Shown: positions 655 to 8,451 of the stretch, piece by piece
Layout: every line of letters begins with the position of its first letter
How positions within the stretch are numbered: the first letter of the stretch is position 1
Virus record (IMG/VR): IMGVR_UViG_2690316131_000008
Direction: 5' to 3' (one strand)
DNA length: 16,062 bases
DNA from: a virus
Taxonomy: Duplodnaviria; Heunggongvirae; Uroviricota; Caudoviricetes
The notes under the pieces: model-generated
Told to the model about the DNA's origin: nothing
What the model saw: only the letters and a program-made list of their open reading frames with translations
The model's database searches: none
Position numbers and translations under genes: made by a program

Positions 655-1272
655 TCAATTATCTTCCAGGCCGGATGCTATCAACGAAAGCCTCTCAAAA
701 AACGCTGTAGCAGCCTTGTCCAAAGTTGAATAAGTACTGTATTCTCCGTGTTCGGGACCAACCACTACCCATGGTCGTCTTTTTGGGATTCGGGACTTCT
801 CAGAAATCACTGTTCCAGATATACCAATATCAATTGTTACACCTGTTATTATTTTCTCTTCATCTCTTTCCCTGAACTCAATTGCCATAAATGCCGTTTT
901 TTTTCGTTTCCCGTTTTTAAAAAAATCAAATAAAGCAAAGCGATGCTCATTAAAATCAACACCCCATCGTCCTTCAGGATAAAGGGCATGAAAGTTGTCA
1001 TTTACGCTCTGCATCGTCTCATAAGCTTTAACTTCTAAATCTCCATAGTGCATAGATACCGCGCAGGAGTCACTGGGTAACTGTATTTTCCCAAGATTGA
1101 AAACCTTTACTGCTCCAGAACTATGGCATCTTGCCCGCAATTTATCCCCATTTATACTAATCGGAGAAATATTCCTTAATGTTCCGGGCTGGCTCCCTCC
1201 TAAGTAAACGACTGTTAAAGATTGCTTATTTTCAATTGCATCAACTAATACATGCTCTACATTTTTATCCAT
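655..1272 (-). CDS. Hypothetical protein, AT-rich cargo (moron) gene immediately downstream of Q
   Basis: ORF track 655-1299; start refined to the ATG for MDKNVEHV (1272), preceded by GGGAGG at ~6 nt. Visibly AT-rich relative to neighbours. No recognisable domain by eye. Confidence 0.6.
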   Translation of the reverse strand: MDKNVEHVLVDAIENKQSLTVVYLGGSQPGTLRNISPISINGDKLRARCHSSGAVKVFNLGKIQLPSDSCAVSMHYGDLEVKAYETMQSVNDNFHALYPEGRWGVDFNEHRFALFDFFKNGKRKKTAFMAIEFRERDEEKIITGVTIDIGISGTVISEKSRIPKRRPWVVVGPEHGEYSTYSTLDKAATAFFERLSLIASGLEDN

Positions 1273-1299
1273 AATAACCTCCCAATGAACAGGTATCAT

Positions 1300-1347
1300 C
1301 AGGAGGTTATAATAAAATATGATTATTTACTTTGATTGAATTTATTA
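1300..1347 (-). promoter_or_regulatory. Putative late promoter / Q-utilisation region (pR'-like)
   Basis: Positional inference only: AT-rich ~48-bp gap directly downstream of the Q stop, containing TTGATT and TA-rich hexamers on the minus strand. In lambdoid phages pR' and qut lie immediately downstream of Q. Confidence 0.25.
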
Positions 1348-1719
1348 CTATATGTAACAATCAATTTCTAAAGATACCCCCAACATTGCCAGACAACCGT
1401 CAATAAACCCTTCAGCTTTCTGCAGTCTGATAACAACCTGATTAAGTGATATCCCCAGTTTTACCCCCAACACCCGTAATGTAACCCCATACACATAATA
1501 CATTTCCAGTAATTCGTATTGATACGGTTCCTTTTTCTTAAGAACTGTCATCGCAGAGCTAATGATCAGGCCATCGTCATCGCTACATTGCGGGCGGGAT
1601 TTTACTTTCGAAGGAATTAATCCCTTAAAACCTGCAGCAACAGATGACCATTCCACATCCTCGTGATTATTTGCCACCCATGCCCCCCAACGTTCAAGAA
1701 CCATTTGAATATCACGCAT
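1348..1719 (-). CDS. Late-gene antitermination protein Q (phage 82 / QuuD-type)
   Basis: Translation MRDIQMVLERWGAWVANNHEDVEWSSVAAGFKGLIPSKVKSRPQC...RLQKAEGFIDG matches the short Q antiterminator family as I recall it. Start at the ATG at 1719 (GGAG 7 nt upstream); the track's 1734 start is a TTG. Confidence 0.75.
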   Translation of the reverse strand: MRDIQMVLERWGAWVANNHEDVEWSSVAAGFKGLIPSKVKSRPQCSDDDGLIISSAMTVLKKKEPYQYELLEMYYVYGVTLRVLGVKLGISLNQVVIRLQKAEGFIDGCLAMLGVSLEIDCYI

Positions 1720-1736
1720 CAACTTTCTCCACAAAA

Positions 1737-2732
1737 TCAGGCCAGCACGCCTATTGCCAGCGCACGATCGATAAAACGAAATATCAGCTCCAGCTGGGAG
1801 CCATACTTCTCTTCAAATGCCACGGTATCCGCATGCAGCTCGTCGTGATGCTTTCTGCACAAAGGCAGCACGAAGAGGTCATGCGCTTTTGTACCCATTC
1901 CCCCCTGACCGTGGCCTATCAGGTGGTGGGGATCATCAGCAGGCTTTCCACAACATGCACACGGCTGCGTCTTAACCCAGCGCGTGTACTTTTCGTTAAC
2001 CCAGCGGCGACGTTTTGGGCGTAACATAAAAGACTCCGGCGACTCCGGATCCACTTTCAGCGCCAGCACCTTTTTCGCTTTATTCTGGATGATGCTGGTG
2101 GCCGGAACCGAAGGCACAAGGTCACTCTCCCGGGTGACAGACGGCACAACAGGCTTCGGTAATCTCAGTGCCTTACGGGCTGCACTTTCCGGTAAGGCAT
2201 CCGCCAGATCATTACGAACCAGCCACCAGCACAGTTCCGGCATTGTCACAACGTGACTGTCATCAAAACCGAGATCCCGACGCACAACAGACAACACCCA
2301 GCGGGCACAGTTATCCGTTGCCATTGATTCCAGCCGTTCCGTGAACTGATCGCGCAGCTGGTTATCGCAGTGCCAGCACAGACGGATTGCGCCCGGCGCG
2401 TGTCGCATTGTGGTCATGTTCTCGCTGTGCCAGTCGGAATGAGGCCACTGGCAACCTTTTTCACGAAGTAACCAGCTTTCAAGACATTCCACGCCACCAG
2501 CACGACGGATCACTGCCTCATTGCGGAACACGGCCCGAACGGCAGGATCATCCGCCAGCGGTTGTGATGCTGCCGGAACGGCACCACTGGCAAAAGATGA
2601 ATAACGTTCCGGCTCAGGCTCCAGCAGGACACGCCCCTGCATAAACAGGGGCATCAGCTCTGAACCGGGTCTGAACAATACGATCCCCATACGCGGGGCA
2701 ATTTCAGGGGTCAGTAGTGCTCTCACGGTCAC
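1737..2732 (-). CDS. DUF968-like protein with C-terminal HNH-type zinc-binding nuclease motif
   Basis: C-terminus CACCGKPADDPHHLIGHGQGGMGTKAHDLFVLPLCRKHHDELH carries a Cys/His HNH-like signature typical of prophage DUF968 (NinG/Rap-like) proteins. GTG start 1 nt after the KilA-N stop. Confidence 0.55.
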   Translation of the reverse strand: MTVRALLTPEIAPRMGIVLFRPGSELMPLFMQGRVLLEPEPERYSSFASGAVPAASQPLADDPAVRAVFRNEAVIRRAGGVECLESWLLREKGCQWPHSDWHSENMTTMRHAPGAIRLCWHCDNQLRDQFTERLESMATDNCARWVLSVVRRDLGFDDSHVVTMPELCWWLVRNDLADALPESAARKALRLPKPVVPSVTRESDLVPSVPATSIIQNKAKKVLALKVDPESPESFMLRPKRRRWVNEKYTRWVKTQPCACCGKPADDPHHLIGHGQGGMGTKAHDLFVLPLCRKHHDELHADTVAFEEKYGSQLELIFRFIDRALAIGVLA

Positions 2733-2733
2733 C

Positions 2734-3549
2734 TCAATGAACGGTATCGAGCAGCTTTAACAGCTCAGGGAATCGGGATTCGAAGAAATGCGGCTGCGTC
2801 TCGCGCGGATTTGCGGGACTGGTGATGTTCTTGCCGAACATGCAACCTTTCGCTGTCAGCGACCAGAATTTTTTGATGTTGTTAATCGCGGTACGGCTGT
2901 ATCGTTCGCGTTGTTCAACGATCCCCAGCTTCGCCATCTGGTGATATGCCTGATTAGCCGTCAGGCGGATACCATACTGCTTCAGCAGTGCACTCAGCGA
3001 CAGCGTAGGGCGGCTTGAACCATCTGGCGCATCAGCAGGTGCATCAATGGCATAGATCGGCATAAGTTCAGGAAGACCAGCTACCTTTGATAATTTCTGG
3101 TATGCACCAAGTTTCGAGGAGTTTGACAGATTTAGAGTCTTTGCTGCTGATTCAAGCAGAATGACCCCGGATTTAATTTTGTCGGATGTGGTTTCTTCTG
3201 GTGATGAATTATGAAGCGCATCAAAAGTACGTATCACTTTTAAGCTGAATGCCGGGCTGATCCACATTGCATATGCATAGACCAGCTCTTTACAGACATA
3301 CGTCCCACCATTGCGCCCCTGAATGGTGATGACAGGAATACTACGGGAATCTCCCGTAGTTTCTTCTTCCAGTAATTCCACAAGAGCCTTCGTTTCAGGA
3401 CGACGCATAAACTCGTGAACTTCCAGCGAACGGGAGGAGCGATTCTCACCAGCGGCAAGAAGAGCAGCTTTCTGAAGGTCGTTAAGACAGTAGTTAGATT
3501 CGAAGTACTGGCGCACAGAAACGCCATCAATTACAAGCAACTGATTCAT
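2734..3549 (-). CDS. KilA-N domain protein (antirepressor-like)
   Basis: N-terminal segment ...GRNGGTYVCKELVYAYAMWISPAFSLKVIRTFDAL fits the KilA-N signature. Start set at the ATG at 3549 (MNQLL, GGAG ~7 nt upstream); the track's 3561 start is a GTG. Confidence 0.65.
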   Translation of the reverse strand: MNQLLVIDGVSVRQYFESNYCLNDLQKAALLAAGENRSSRSLEVHEFMRRPETKALVELLEEETTGDSRSIPVITIQGRNGGTYVCKELVYAYAMWISPAFSLKVIRTFDALHNSSPEETTSDKIKSGVILLESAAKTLNLSNSSKLGAYQKLSKVAGLPELMPIYAIDAPADAPDGSSRPTLSLSALLKQYGIRLTANQAYHQMAKLGIVEQRERYSRTAINNIKKFWSLTAKGCMFGKNITSPANPRETQPHFFESRFPELLKLLDTVH

Positions 3550-3711
3550 TGGTTTCTCCACAAATTTTTATCCACGAGCGGGACTGCACTCCCTTTTCGT
3601 TGATGCAGGATGAACTTACTGCGATTTTTAATAGTTATCAAGGATACACTGTTCATAAATACAGTATCTTTAACGAGGTAATACCCAAATTTAGGGTGTT
3701 GCTCAATTCCG

Positions 3712-4107
3712 TTACCGAGTTGCTAATTTGCAACTCGCTTTTTCGTACTTACTGATAGTGATCTCGACCTTCCCCTCCGGGATAACCGGTCCCCACTCCA
3801 CCAGCATTCTTTTCACCTGTCTGTCGTCTTCCCACACACCCGCGTGGGTCAGGGCGTCAAACAGCGCCTTGTTATAGTTGTCCAGATCGCGGATCCGGTT
3901 ATCCGGAGGAAACAACACGATCTCCACTGAAGCAGGTGCCGACGTTGGTTTCGGCAGACGACGTAACTGCTCAACTATTGCTGCACACGCCGCGCTCTGG
4001 AATTTTCGCCCCGCCGCGCTTATCAGGCTCTTACCAGCAAACGCCCCTTTGTTGGGGTGTCGCCAGTACGTGTTCACGCTGGGCGGAAAAGGCAGTATTA
4101 GCTTCAT
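3712..4107 (-). CDS. rusA: RusA-family Holliday junction resolvase
   Basis: MKLILPFPPSVNTYWRH...DLDNYNKALFDALTHAGVWEDDRQV matches the RusA signature (LPxPPSxNxYxRH; DLDN; acidic catalytic residues). ATGA overlap with the upstream gene. Confidence 0.8.
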   Translation of the reverse strand: MKLILPFPPSVNTYWRHPNKGAFAGKSLISAAGRKFQSAACAAIVEQLRRLPKPTSAPASVEIVLFPPDNRIRDLDNYNKALFDALTHAGVWEDDRQVKRMLVEWGPVIPEGKVEITISKYEKASCKLATR

Positions 4108-4430
4108 ACTTTCAGGCCCCTCTCATGTAACCAGTGGGCTGCACGCAGCCTGGCGTTTGCCTCACCGGCAAGCAGGGCGCGGATAATCCCGACCGCCTCG
4201 CTGTCGTCGTCCTTCACCGCGGTATGAAGAGTGATACCCCGGGCCACGCCACGCTTTATCGTGATGACACCTTTTTTCTCCAGTGCGCGAAGATGCTCCA
4301 CCGCTGCATTCACCGAACGGTATCCCAGCATGGTTGCCACCTCCTGATTGGTTGGCGGGAAGCCACGTTCTTTCTGATAAGAAATCAGCATATCCAGCAC
4401 CTGCTGCTGGCATTGAGTTAATGTCGTCAT
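4104..4430 (-). CDS. LexA N-terminal DNA-binding domain protein, no peptidase domain
   Basis: MTTLTQCQQQVLDMLISYQKERGFPPTNQEVATMLGYRSVNAAVEHLRALEKKGVITIKRGVARGI parallels the LexA N-terminal winged-helix domain. Only 108 aa, so no S24 domain. ATGA overlaps at both ends. Confidence 0.65.
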   Translation of the reverse strand: MTTLTQCQQQVLDMLISYQKERGFPPTNQEVATMLGYRSVNAAVEHLRALEKKGVITIKRGVARGITLHTAVKDDDSEAVGIIRALLAGEANARLRAAHWLHERGLKV

Positions 4431-5080
4431 GCCGCCATCTCCCTGACCAGTTTTTCCGCCTGCTGGCGAACCTGCGCCAGAAACGCCTCACCACATACCT
4501 CAAGTTCATCGCGCCCGATGTAGCTGATTGCCGCTCCCTTCCAGGTCTTGTCGAAAACAGCAATAGCACCAGCGAAGAAAGCACCTGTTGGCACCTGCTT
4601 TTCGTCTTTCGGGATAAACCAGGCTGGCAGTTCAAAACCAATACGCCCGCGAATAAAAGCAATATGATCTGCATCTTCCGGCCACCATACTTCGCTGGTG
4701 GCCGCTTTGATCAGGAAAACATAGCGCCCGCCCTTATCACGCATGGCACTGGCATGTTTCATGATGTAACGCATGCCGGTGATGTATTGCCCCTCATGCT
4801 GACTGGCGCGGCTGTATGGGGGATTACCAAAGGCAGCACCTTTAAGCTCCGCAAGACGTTCTGACCAGTCATGCGCCAGCGCGTTGTCTTCCGCCGTGTA
4901 ATACGCGGCACATTTGGCGTTATCACCGTCAGTGAACAGATCCAGAACAAACGGACCAAACAAGGTGTTAATTCCCCAGAAAATGTTGTCCGGCGTGCGC
5001 CACTGATCGCCCACTTCCTTCAGTTCATGGGCTGGTTTGTTCCGCAGCTCCACCAGCGCCTGGCAATATTTATTACTCAT
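4427..5080 (-). CDS. Phage Dam-type DNA N6-adenine methyltransferase
   Basis: N-terminal DQWRTPDNIFW (DxWxTP-like) and catalytic GNPPYS (NPPY) motifs. Start refined to the ATG for MSNKYCQ at 5080, which shares one base with the upstream TAA stop. Confidence 0.8.
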   Translation of the reverse strand: MSNKYCQALVELRNKPAHELKEVGDQWRTPDNIFWGINTLFGPFVLDLFTDGDNAKCAAYYTAEDNALAHDWSERLAELKGAAFGNPPYSRASQHEGQYITGMRYIMKHASAMRDKGGRYVFLIKAATSEVWWPEDADHIAFIRGRIGFELPAWFIPKDEKQVPTGAFFAGAIAVFDKTWKGAAISYIGRDELEVCGEAFLAQVRQQAEKLVREMAA

Positions 5081-5571
5081 TAAGCCCCCACGTAATTCCC
5101 TGACAGATACCACTCTTCACCCGATGCAGCGCGCTTGCTGCTTTTCCGTAAGCACCGCTCACGATGCGCCAGAAAATTGTTTCGTTCTGGCTGGGAGTGG
5201 CTTTCACGGAATGCCGCCATCCACACCGTTGCAGCACGACGGTATAAGCCCCTGGACTCCAGTTCTTCCGCCTGGCGGGTCAACAAAATCACCCGGGGAT
5301 CGTTAGTGCCGACATAGAAATTGCGCACAGGTCTGGTTTCACGAACTGGTTGTGGTTCCGGCTCCTGCGCTCTCTCAGTCAGGCGTGGGAAATGTCTGCG
5401 TGTATCTCCTTCACAACGGTGAGCCACACGCCCACTCTGACGTAACTTGCTTGCTGACTGCAGAACGCGCTGCCGTGAGTAACCAGCAAAAGCATCCGCA
5501 ATGTCTCCGGAAGTACACCCCGGATGGGCTTCAATGAATTTCTGAACTTCATTCAAAAGACTCATGATCAC
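5080..5571 (-). CDS. PerC-like putative transcriptional regulator (prophage YfdN-like)
   Basis: Segment LTRQAEELESRGLYRRAATVWMAAF resembles the PerC-family core as I recall it; Arg-rich N-terminal half. GTG/ATG start overlaps the stop of the upstream replication gene. Confidence 0.45.
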   Translation of the reverse strand: MIMSLLNEVQKFIEAHPGCTSGDIADAFAGYSRQRVLQSASKLRQSGRVAHRCEGDTRRHFPRLTERAQEPEPQPVRETRPVRNFYVGTNDPRVILLTRQAEELESRGLYRRAATVWMAAFRESHSQPERNNFLAHRERCLRKSSKRAASGEEWYLSGNYVGA

Positions 5572-7824: not shown

Positions 7825-8451
7825 ATGGAAACGGTTGGTCAGCGTATAAAAGCTCTGAGAAGAGTTACCAGAACGTCCCAGAAAGAATTGGGTAAATTTT
7901 GTGGAGTAAGTGACGTTGCTGTGGGGTACTGGGAGAAAGACATCAATGTCCCTGGTGGGGAAGCACTTTCAAAATTAGCGAAGTTCTTCAATACGTCAAT
8001 AGATTACATTCTTTATGGTGCGGAGTTTGAAGGCAAACTCGTCACAAACATGCGCAGAGTTCCTGTAATCTCGTGGGTTCAGGCTGGGCAGTTTACTGAG
8101 TGCAGGACAGCAGAAGTGTTTAGTGAAGTAGACAAGTGGGTAGATACATCATTAAAGATTGGTGATAACTCATTTGCATTGGAGGTTAAAGGCGACTCCA
8201 TGACTAACCCTAACGGCCTCCCAACAATACCAGAAGGCGCAACAGTGATTGTAGATCCTGATGCAGAACCCCGGCATGGAAAAATAGTCATCGCTAGACT
8301 TGATGGAACAAACGAAGCCACAGTAAAAAAATTAGTTATCGATGGCCCTCAAAAGTTTTTAGTGCCATTAAATCCCCGGTACCCCAACATCCCGATCAAT
8401 GGTAATTGCCTCATCATTGGTGTAGTCAAAGGAGTTCAATACGAACTCTAG
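7825..8451 (+). CDS. CI-like phage repressor (N-terminal HTH, C-terminal S24 LexA-like peptidase)
   Basis: N-terminus QRIKALRRVTRTSQKELGKFCGVSDVAVGYWE is an XRE-type HTH. C-terminus carries GDSM (Ser nucleophile) and VKKL (Lys general base about 40 residues later), as in LexA/lambda CI. Confidence 0.85.
   Translation: METVGQRIKALRRVTRTSQKELGKFCGVSDVAVGYWEKDINVPGGEALSKLAKFFNTSIDYILYGAEFEGKLVTNMRRVPVISWVQAGQFTECRTAEVFSEVDKWVDTSLKIGDNSFALEVKGDSMTNPNGLPTIPEGATVIVDPDAEPRHGKIVIARLDGTNEATVKKLVIDGPQKFLVPLNPRYPNIPINGNCLIIGVVKGVQYEL

Follow-up and report, generated by a model that had tools for sequence, protein, structure and literature searches.

A position-conserved palindrome within phage KilA-N genes is a candidate cognate DNA site: the kilA-N–DUF968 module upstream of Q in a lambdoid prophage

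Few DNA-binding domains of phages and large DNA viruses are, to our knowledge, as widespread as KilA-N or as poorly understood, and we know of no target site for any of the phage proteins that carry it. Its founding member is KilA of phage P1, encoded in the kilA-repL lytic replicon operon. BstA, a KilA-N-like prophage defense protein, is neutralized by aba, a DNA-based and allele-specific element that overlaps its own gene (PMC8585504). Here we describe a kilA-N gene (2734-3549, minus strand, 271 amino acids) in a 16,062-nucleotide stretch of Caudoviricetes DNA (IMG/VR record IMGVR_UViG_2690316131_000008; hereafter the window, with position 1 as its first letter), where it sits between rusA and the antiterminator gene Q. 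The same slot in phage HK022, between the nin region and Q, is reportedly occupied by the gene of another DNA-binding protein, Roi, which Clerget & Boccard (J Bacteriol 1996) reportedly found to bind a site inside its own gene; the similarity of Roi to P1 Ant1/KilA is said to lie in the C-terminal half, which would make it a different domain combination. Within the coding sequence of the KilA-N domain of the window lies a perfect palindrome, and our best explanation, which we hold tentatively, is that this dyad is a candidate cognate cis-acting DNA site for the gene's own KilA-N domain.

The palindrome, ACTACGGGA-GAT-TCCCGTAGT at 3340-3360, spans 21 bp with arms of 9+9 bp and codes for loop residues 64-70 (TTGDSRS). 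Its sequence occurs once in the window and once in the whole genome of phage SfIV. Neither the complete SfIV genome nor that of SfII holds a second copy of its own dyad at ≤5 mismatches, which rules out extra operator copies elsewhere in these two phages at that level. At the homologous position the SfII and Stx2a phage alleles have a different perfect dyad, CGAGTTGC-AGATTT-GCAACTCG. P1 KilA, which also matches PF04383 and whose N-domain is 37% identical to that of the window protein over residues 4-109, has a gene with a perfect dyad at the equivalent codons, GAAACTATGCA-GAAT-TGCATAGTTTC, immediately ahead of the GGGTF motif; its arms are 11 bp, or 14 bp in one variant. The P1 dyad is, however, unrelated in sequence; the C-terminal half of P1 KilA is of the KilA-C/ANT type, and P1 kilA lies under a C1-controlled promoter upstream of repL, with neither DUF968 nor Q beside it.

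A survey of 134 homologous genes, with 78 unique 5' parts, indicates how general this arrangement is. Across alleles the dyad has arms of 7-11 bp, an A/T-rich center and a total length of ~20-24 bp, and in nearly all of them the conserved GGTY codons follow 43-67 nt downstream. The arms fall into more than 15 unrelated sequences, so that the position is kept and the sequence replaced. A perfect stem of at least 8 bp is present in 61 of the 78 unique genes, as against 6.8% of codon-order shuffles, and 57 of those 61 stems begin at nt 150-239. The enrichment holds when a single representative is taken from each of 22 N-domain clusters (<70% identity), distant genes included, and a 90-nt region is searched: stems of ≥8 bp occur in 14 clusters (0.21 expected) and stems of ≥7 bp in 18 (0.85 expected). 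Dyads with 9-bp arms are found in the KilA-N gene of Ralstonia phage Heva and in a late-region KilA-N gene of Stx2 phage 1717 (80/80 copies), and dyads with 7-bp arms in ant of Salmonella phage Emek and in the KilA-N gene of APSE-2. The P1-type and 1717-type locus sets are nearly clonal, and their members therefore represent extra copies, not independent lineages. As a cis feature of KilA-N genes the dyad is statistically robust and, it appears, undescribed: our literature search returned no description of an intragenic dyad and no paper combining KilA-N with a palindrome, and the detailed annotation of P1 has no feature at the dyad site.

The residues that the dyad encodes vary freely and fall in a loop of low confidence that links helix 51-63 to strand 73-76 in the AlphaFold2 (AF2) model, which suggests that the constraint acts on the nucleic acid and that the peptide is a passenger. 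Readings of the intragenic dyads as CII-type or LexA-type sites fail on half-sites and spacing. A role as target of the DUF968 or RusA nuclease is likewise rejected as a general explanation, since neither gene accompanies the dyad in P1, phage 1717, Emek and Heva.

Dyads of the same kind also occur outside kilA-N, and two extragenic cassettes precede the gene in the window. The first, CGAGTTGCAAATTAGCAACTCG at 3716-3737 with 8+8 bp arms, is identical to the intragenic dyad of kilA-N alleles from Phytobacter, Enterobacter and Superficieibacter and near-identical to that of the SfII/Stx2a alleles. Read in another frame, the 31 nt at 3710-3740 share 93-100% identity with nt 150-180 of class-B kilA-N genes, and this rusA allele has a C-terminal extension (…ASCKLATR*) that overlaps the cassette. 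The second, GGAATTGAGCAACACCCTAAATTTGGGTATTA at 3679-3710, is degenerate and resembles the intragenic dyad region of P0206-type genes, CAACACCCAGAATTTGGGTGTTG; over 27-28 nt it is 86-89% identical to their nt 165-192. Both cassettes retain little besides their dyads. A consensus scan flagged plus-strand 'terminators' at 3340-3360 and 3716-3737, which are simply the two dyads on the antisense strand; we reject these calls because the flanking T-richness stems from Glu and Leu codons and is not conserved.

When viral contigs were scanned for the class-B dyad, 80 copies turned up within kilA-N, 33 in spacers of the window type and a few elsewhere. Three of these last belong to an array in non-coding DNA that combines five or more heterologous dyads of the KilA-N type (L411:5520-5670; L409:4960-5135; L482:890-1065; L519:7001-7191; L520:6001-6188). 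It sits at one end of a P4/PICI-like satellite whose products include a primase, DUF4222, an Icd-like protein, DUF1441 and a ClpP-protease/capsid fusion, and of 5426 complete E. coli genomes 665 have the array or a variant of it. The satellite arrays lie beyond the last gene of the operon, their dyads are nested and overlapping, and the last position holds three different dyads among the variants. Within kilA-N itself, P0164-type alleles have an in-frame 12-codon duplication that bears a second dyad. The spacer cassettes, this duplication and the satellite arrays together indicate that the dyads behave as autonomous DNA modules.

The protein that we propose as the binder was correctly assigned in a first-pass annotation of the window, a model's reading of the letters and open reading frames. 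A search with profile hidden Markov models matches PF04383 to residues 14-118 with a score of 57.6 bits, where the cutoff is 23.8 (E=1.3e-15; positions 8-106 of the 107 in the profile), and PHROGs places the protein in phrog_129 ('transcriptional regulator', 4e-109). The AF2 model has a predicted local distance difference test score (pLDDT) of 73, with a β/α N-domain, long linker helices and an α/β C-domain; Foldseek of the whole model against the PDB has PCG2 (4ux5) and Mbp1 (1bm8, 1mb1, 1l3g) among its top matches (E=0.5-2.5). Domain shuffling is a known trait of the KilA-N family, and the C-terminal module here (residues ~175-271), which is the unnamed family phrog_6486, is elsewhere joined to Rha-type and other N-domains. 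What the gene encodes is a KilA-N domain, predicted to be APSES-like and to bind DNA, which helices join to a conserved, shuffled C-terminal module. Pfam gives no match at E≤0.01 to KilA-C/ANT (PF03374) or Bro-N in this protein, and PADLOC reports a partial PDC-S22 match over residues 67-122 (E=8e-10). The exact protein is already in the collection as P0121, with 674 cluster members. NCBIfam has a model match for neither this protein nor the DUF968 protein, and PDB sequence searches with both returned no match; neither protein has a sequence-detectable solved relative.

BstA is alike in joining a KilA-N(-like) N-domain to a second, C-terminal domain and in having a short cis DNA element that overlaps its gene (PMC8585504). 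It is an analogue only, with no detectable sequence similarity to the window protein: a BLASTP comparison of the window KilA-N protein with BstA of BTP1 yields no alignment below E=0.2, and the PADLOC BstA model is not matched. Whereas aba spans 63 bp across the start codon with terminal direct CCCGCC repeats (PMC8585504), the kilA-N start has no direct-repeat element; and whereas bstA adjoins cI and is expressed in the lysogen, the kilA-N gene of the window sits before Q.

The region upstream of kilA-N holds putative control elements. The first-pass annotation noted a 150-bp gap here and suggested a separate promoter. The gap is real, although its length is 162 bp (3550-3711) when counted from the kilA-N ATG, and the promoter idea is partly supported. 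A LexA-type SOS box, TACTGTATTTATGAACAGTG (CTGT-N8-ACAG), at 3647-3666 is the sole 0-mismatch match in the window to TACTGTAT-N6-ACAGT and agrees with the E. coli SOS-box consensus at 16/20 positions. It stands 5-6 nt upstream of the −35-like hexamer of a putative sigma-70 promoter (3613-3641, minus strand), composed of TTGATA at 3636-3641, 17 nt, and a −10-like TAAGTT at 3613-3618. Downstream, at 3575-3599 on the minus strand, lies a stem-loop of the 5' untranslated region (UTR) with the core GGGA-GTGCAG-TCCC (3580-3593) and TGCAG as an invariant motif in the loop. The order of elements is common to twelve loci with long spacers, drawn from different genera: an nTGnAT…CAG box, TTGAnA, 17 nt, TAnnnT, ~12 nt and the stem-loop, then an A-rich stretch and GTGGAGAA followed by ATG. 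In alignment A7 of these loci, nTGnAT…CAG is nearly invariant at the box position, the −35-like box is present in 10/12 and all 12 have the same T1, A2 and T6 in the −10. RNAalifold over 19 loci recovers a 4-bp UTR stem with compensatory changes in all pairs and with G·U pairs present. This hairpin lies ~25-40 nt upstream of the kilA-N start and is also found in the short-gap SfII type, there within the rusA 3' end; Rfam over 1300-4200 has no match at E≤1, the UTR hairpin included. A consensus promoter scan reported no minus-strand promoter in the kilA-N gap, because the −10-like hexamer matches at only 3/6 positions.

Upstream of rusA, at 4104-4430 on the minus strand, is a gene for a 108-amino-acid protein consisting of a LexA DNA-binding domain (DBD) only (PF01726, E=2.9e-19; the peptidase domain is absent), which is 43% identical to E. 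coli LexA residues 1-87. This protein could be a second binder of the SOS-type box, acting as a non-cleavable LexA mimic. The box, the conserved hexamers and the LexA-DBD gene together make a putative internal promoter under LexA-type control plausible. A comparable case is that of the Gifsy and Fels prophages, whose LexA-controlled antirepressor genes are likewise prophage regulatory genes with an SOS-type box in front (Lemire et al. 2011, PMC3121763). They differ in that their repressors are non-cleavable and need an antirepressor (PMC3121763), whereas the window repressor has a Peptidase_S24 domain; moreover, the window box is upstream of the −35 and the window phage encodes its own LexA-DBD-only protein.

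The long spacer appears to have arrived by allele replacement. Relative to SfII and Stx2a phages, homology ends at the rusA 3' end (at ~3735 for SfII-type rusA) and returns ~500 nt into kilA-N, from where the C-terminal ~100 residues of the KilA-N protein and DUF968 are nearly identical. As homology breaks at both edges, we read the spacer and the KilA-N N-domain half as one replaced block, that is, an allele swap. In the commonest versions from E. coli, Shigella, SfII-type and Stx phages, only 19 bp separate rusA from kilA-N, and the 162-bp variant is a minority, found in 186/5426 E. coli genomes and five phage records. A spacer variant of 93% identity, whose sole differences are one substitution and an 11-bp deletion, has so few differences that it is uninformative on the cassettes.

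We propose that the kilA-N/DUF968 pair would be read from the early rightward (pR-type) operon and, in the long-spacer variant, also from its own promoter, which would be guarded by the LexA-type box and followed by a structured 5' UTR. The box could be occupied by host LexA and/or by the phage's own non-cleavable LexA-DBD protein. A dimer of the gene's own KilA-N domain would recognize the dyad as double-stranded DNA, and with the site embedded in the domain's coding sequence, protein and site would stay linked through mosaic recombination. Binding could result in negative feedback, in a roadblock ahead of DUF968 and Q, and/or in self-marking of the phage DNA, and the heterologous dyad copies in the spacer may render the phage responsive or immune to the KilA-N proteins of co-resident phages. 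A cognate cis site seems to us the most natural reading because of the precedents of BstA/aba and, as reported, of HK022 Roi. It is also conceivable, if rather doubtful, that the KilA-N dyads form a self-marking system in phage–phage and phage–satellite conflicts. The KilA-N protein would then act on DNA that lacks the cognate dyad, or be neutralized by dyad-bearing DNA, and the spacer dyads and the arrays of P4/PICI-like satellites would be decoys or sensors for many helper or competitor phages.

Several observations weigh against the proposal of a cognate site and the control scheme around it. The FTEGGIPP… allele group (of the Salmonella phage 118970_sal3 type) and a few others have no dyad; bstA lacks a palindrome at the corresponding position, and aba is made of direct repeats at the start codon rather than a loop dyad. 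The resemblance of the KilA-N model to Mbp1 and PCG2 is not significant at E ~0.5-2.5. The −10-like hexamer is weak (3/6), the LexA-type box lies upstream of the −35 instead of over it, and most E. coli relatives are without the long spacer. For the DUF968 partner, the alignment of its N- and C-terminal halves is weak (E=0.047). Finally, closely related Proteus alleles (L335 vs L350; L113 vs L112) have identical arms and a flipped dyad center, GAGATCAC vs GTGATCTC, which looks like a signature of hairpin template-switching and could keep the arms identical without selection. The main rival explanation builds on just this process. Here the dyad would be a functionless, self-perpetuating palindrome, derived from an ancestral inverted repeat in an unconstrained loop segment and kept perfect by intrastrand template-switching, with gene conversion between the arms, in what are ordinary accessory genes; the arms would drift in concert, so that their covariation would be mutational and not selected. 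The inverted Proteus centers are as hairpin-mediated flipping predicts, the encoded peptide is in a variable, low-confidence loop, and the dyad has been lost or degraded in some lineages. We nonetheless consider this explanation unlikely. Unselected palindromes are deletion-prone, yet the codon position has been kept from P1 to Ralstonia phages; dyad cassettes have been copied to non-coding DNA, and multi-class arrays are conserved in hundreds of genomes; and the total length clusters at ~20-24 bp around an A/T-rich center.

A hairpin in the early mRNA would be another use for a palindrome on the transcribed strand upstream of Q, whether it sets mRNA processing or stability, makes translation pause or is bound by an RNA-binding protein; the output of KilA-N, DUF968 and Q would be tuned in this way. 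In its favor, the stems are strong, and the same loci use a covarying hairpin of RNA type in the 5' UTR. The KilA-N fold has reportedly been compared by Iyer et al. (2002) with nucleic-acid-binding modules of nucleases. The dyad arms, however, are strictly Watson-Crick: the next pair at the stem ends is G·T in 1/26 dyads (~4 expected), and alleles with one internal mismatch have T·T, whereas the UTR hairpin has G·U pairs in several sequences. No U-tract is seen after the dyad on the sense strand. These features favor a dyad in double-stranded DNA (or hairpins on both strands) over a sense-strand RNA hairpin, and with satellite arrays of nested and overlapping dyads past the last gene of the operon, we judge the RNA explanation very improbable. 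A third rival follows the first-pass annotation: two moron-like genes, for an antirepressor and an HNH nuclease, would have been inserted together under a promoter of their own, and there would be no other cis features of note. The family matches hold, and the LexA-type box with its promoter-like layout resembles the LexA-controlled antirepressor genes of Gifsy (PMC3121763). We find this account quite unlikely, as it leaves the intragenic dyad and the cassettes unaccounted for. The spacer with its promoter is missing in most E. coli and Stx-phage versions, and far from being inserted, rusA–kilA-N–DUF968–Q is a conserved, syntenic and widespread module. The term 'antirepressor-type' proves to be a label only: antirepressor domains are not matched, and the prophage repressor (7825-8451) has HTH_3 and Peptidase_S24 domains and hence is self-cleavable, so that an antirepressor is not needed.

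An allele-specific, position-fixed palindrome supplies a concrete candidate binding site for each KilA-N allele, and what KilA-N proteins bind, and why they are so mosaic, becomes experimentally approachable. Should the cassettes and arrays be decoys or sensors, cognate self-immunity in the style of BstA/aba would extend to a far larger family, and to phage–satellite interactions as well. The module is directly upstream of Q in Stx-converting phages, and a roadblock or an SOS-linked promoter would therefore be relevant to the timing of late genes and toxin. It is the embedded dyad, not the two genes themselves, that could matter; together with the plausibly SOS-linked promoter region it raises the interest of a locus that the first-pass annotation had described correctly but partly mis-framed.

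The synteny of the module was established in 78 unique related loci taken from viral and genome collections. RusA is upstream of kilA-N in 58 of them, DUF968 begins within ~10 nt of the kilA-N stop in 57, and in most a LexA-DBD gene is found ahead of rusA as well. Conservation of the kilA-N→DUF968 pair spans Enterobacterales, with the adjacency reaching Gilliamella, where DUF968 identity is 36-38%, and rare fused products are known that combine KilA-N with DUF968 or RusA with KilA-N. All genes of the module, in the left part of the window, are read on the minus strand, and the coordinates place the pair between rusA and Q, as the first-pass annotation had it. The RusA Holliday-junction resolvase (3712-4107; PF05866, E=1.3e-14; RefSeq) is the upstream neighbor. 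The kilA-N open reading frame extends over 2734-3561 from its first GTG; the RefSeq start, the ATG at 3549, is preceded by a GGAG ribosome-binding site. The DUF968 reading frame, likewise, is 1737-2732 from its first GTG (331 amino acids), and RefSeq and databases start it at the GTG at 2726 (1737-2726, 329 amino acids). The kilA-N stop TGA (2734-2736) overlaps the GAGG ribosome-binding site of this GTG, and the start of Q (1348-1719, minus strand, 123 amino acids in RefSeq; PF06530, E=1.5e-47) is 17 nt downstream of the DUF968 stop. Given this overlap and this distance, kilA-N, DUF968 and Q are tightly packed, and from the overlap kilA-N and DUF968, both intact, look translationally coupled. 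Together with the rare fused products, this coupling suggests that the two proteins may form a complex. The whole is best explained as the last delayed-early module of a lambdoid prophage.

The DUF968 assignment also withstands the profile search, and the family is matched at nearly full length: PF06147 scores 272.9 bits where 27.8 are required (E=1.5e-81; residues 162-328, profile positions 2-171 of 171), HNHc_6 (PF16784) scores 26.8 against 26.6 (E=4.4e-6), and PHROGs returns phrog_96 ('HNH endonuclease', 2e-177). The motif noted in the first pass, CACCGK...HHLIGHGQGG...CRKHHDELH, is present in the translation and follows the pattern CxxC…HH…C…H…H; C256, C259, H267, H268, H282, D283, C290, H294 and H298 are invariant in 28 sequences. 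The AF2 model has a pLDDT of 74.6 overall (85-95 in the N-domain), and its C-domain consists of strands followed by a helix at 291-299. In BFVD, the best fold match is a small DUF968 protein (E=1.9e-6), with HNH, EndoVII and NinG proteins also found; in the PDB, the top matches are all HNH nucleases, though weak (E ~0.3). Profile, motif and fold show the C-terminus to be a predicted His-Me finger (HNH) zinc nuclease domain in which all motif residues are invariant. The N-terminal ~160 residues have no Pfam assignment and hold a second conserved motif, C92-Q…H100…C117-W-H-(C/H)-D-N…N139, which is ββα-like; the region around it (residues 60-150) is modeled by AF2 as a β-hairpin and a helix. A tandem HNH-like architecture is suggested, in which the N-module may be a degenerate second HNH. 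In hhalign, the two halves align with their motifs in the expected register, but the alignment reaches just E=0.047, and an internal duplication is not sustained.

In the classification of His-Me finger proteins, DUF968 and DUF1364 form group 7, with YdfU (of Qin) and YbcO (of DLP12, PDB 3g27) as members; the typical neighbors are RusA, Q and an antirepressor, and a nuclease of recombination or repair was hypothesized (PMC5714182). The window protein is alike in its strong PF06147 match, its neighborhood of RusA, Q and an antirepressor-type gene, and its fold matches to DUF968 and HNH proteins. It is unlike in that, at 329 amino acids, it has an extra N-half of ~160 residues with the second Cys/His motif, and in that a profile search of PDB sequences starting from DUF968 fails to reach 3g27. 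Gram-positive DUF968 proteins, for comparison, pair an Orf-like N-domain with an HNH zinc finger (Curtis et al., PMC4118853). PADLOC has no match for the DUF968 protein. Like its neighbors RusA and NinG, the protein would most likely serve phage recombination or replication, as a DNase directed to DNA structures or damage. That both families are poorly characterized, as the first pass remarked, is fair: experimental work is lacking for both, the role of DUF968/YdfU is hypothesized only (PMC5714182), and the cited literature reports no biochemical test of any group 7 member.

As a gene finding, both genes are already known and ordinary, being annotated in thousands of genomes and belonging to catalogued families. 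The RefSeq labels are 'KilA-N domain-containing protein', 'DUF968 domain-containing protein' and 'antiterminator Q family protein'. A 2.9-kb query from Q to rusA matched 74 phage records, which include SfIV (98%), PhiR49_1, SfII and mEp460 as well as many Stx2a and Stx2c phages, and matched part of the module in 3764/5426 complete E. coli genomes. Both SfIV and PhiR49_1 have been isolated as phages and share the kilA-N allele of the window. SfIV (L156, 32201-32756) has an identical kilA-N allele and spacer and no rusA annotated between the LexA-like gene and kilA-N; the class-B palindrome is nonetheless present at 32568, and rusA may be disrupted there or merely unannotated.

Further upstream of the LexA-DBD gene, the minus strand carries a Dam methyltransferase by family match (open reading frame 4427-5113; RefSeq coding sequence 4427-5080). 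Between this gene and the replication genes, at 5080-5571 on the minus strand, is a homologue of the PerC-family transcriptional activators, called yfdN in relatives. On the other side of the module, between Q and the late genes, a 214-amino-acid protein (655-1299, minus strand) matches phrog_8498 and has a weak, sub-threshold match to the WYL domain (E=0.01).

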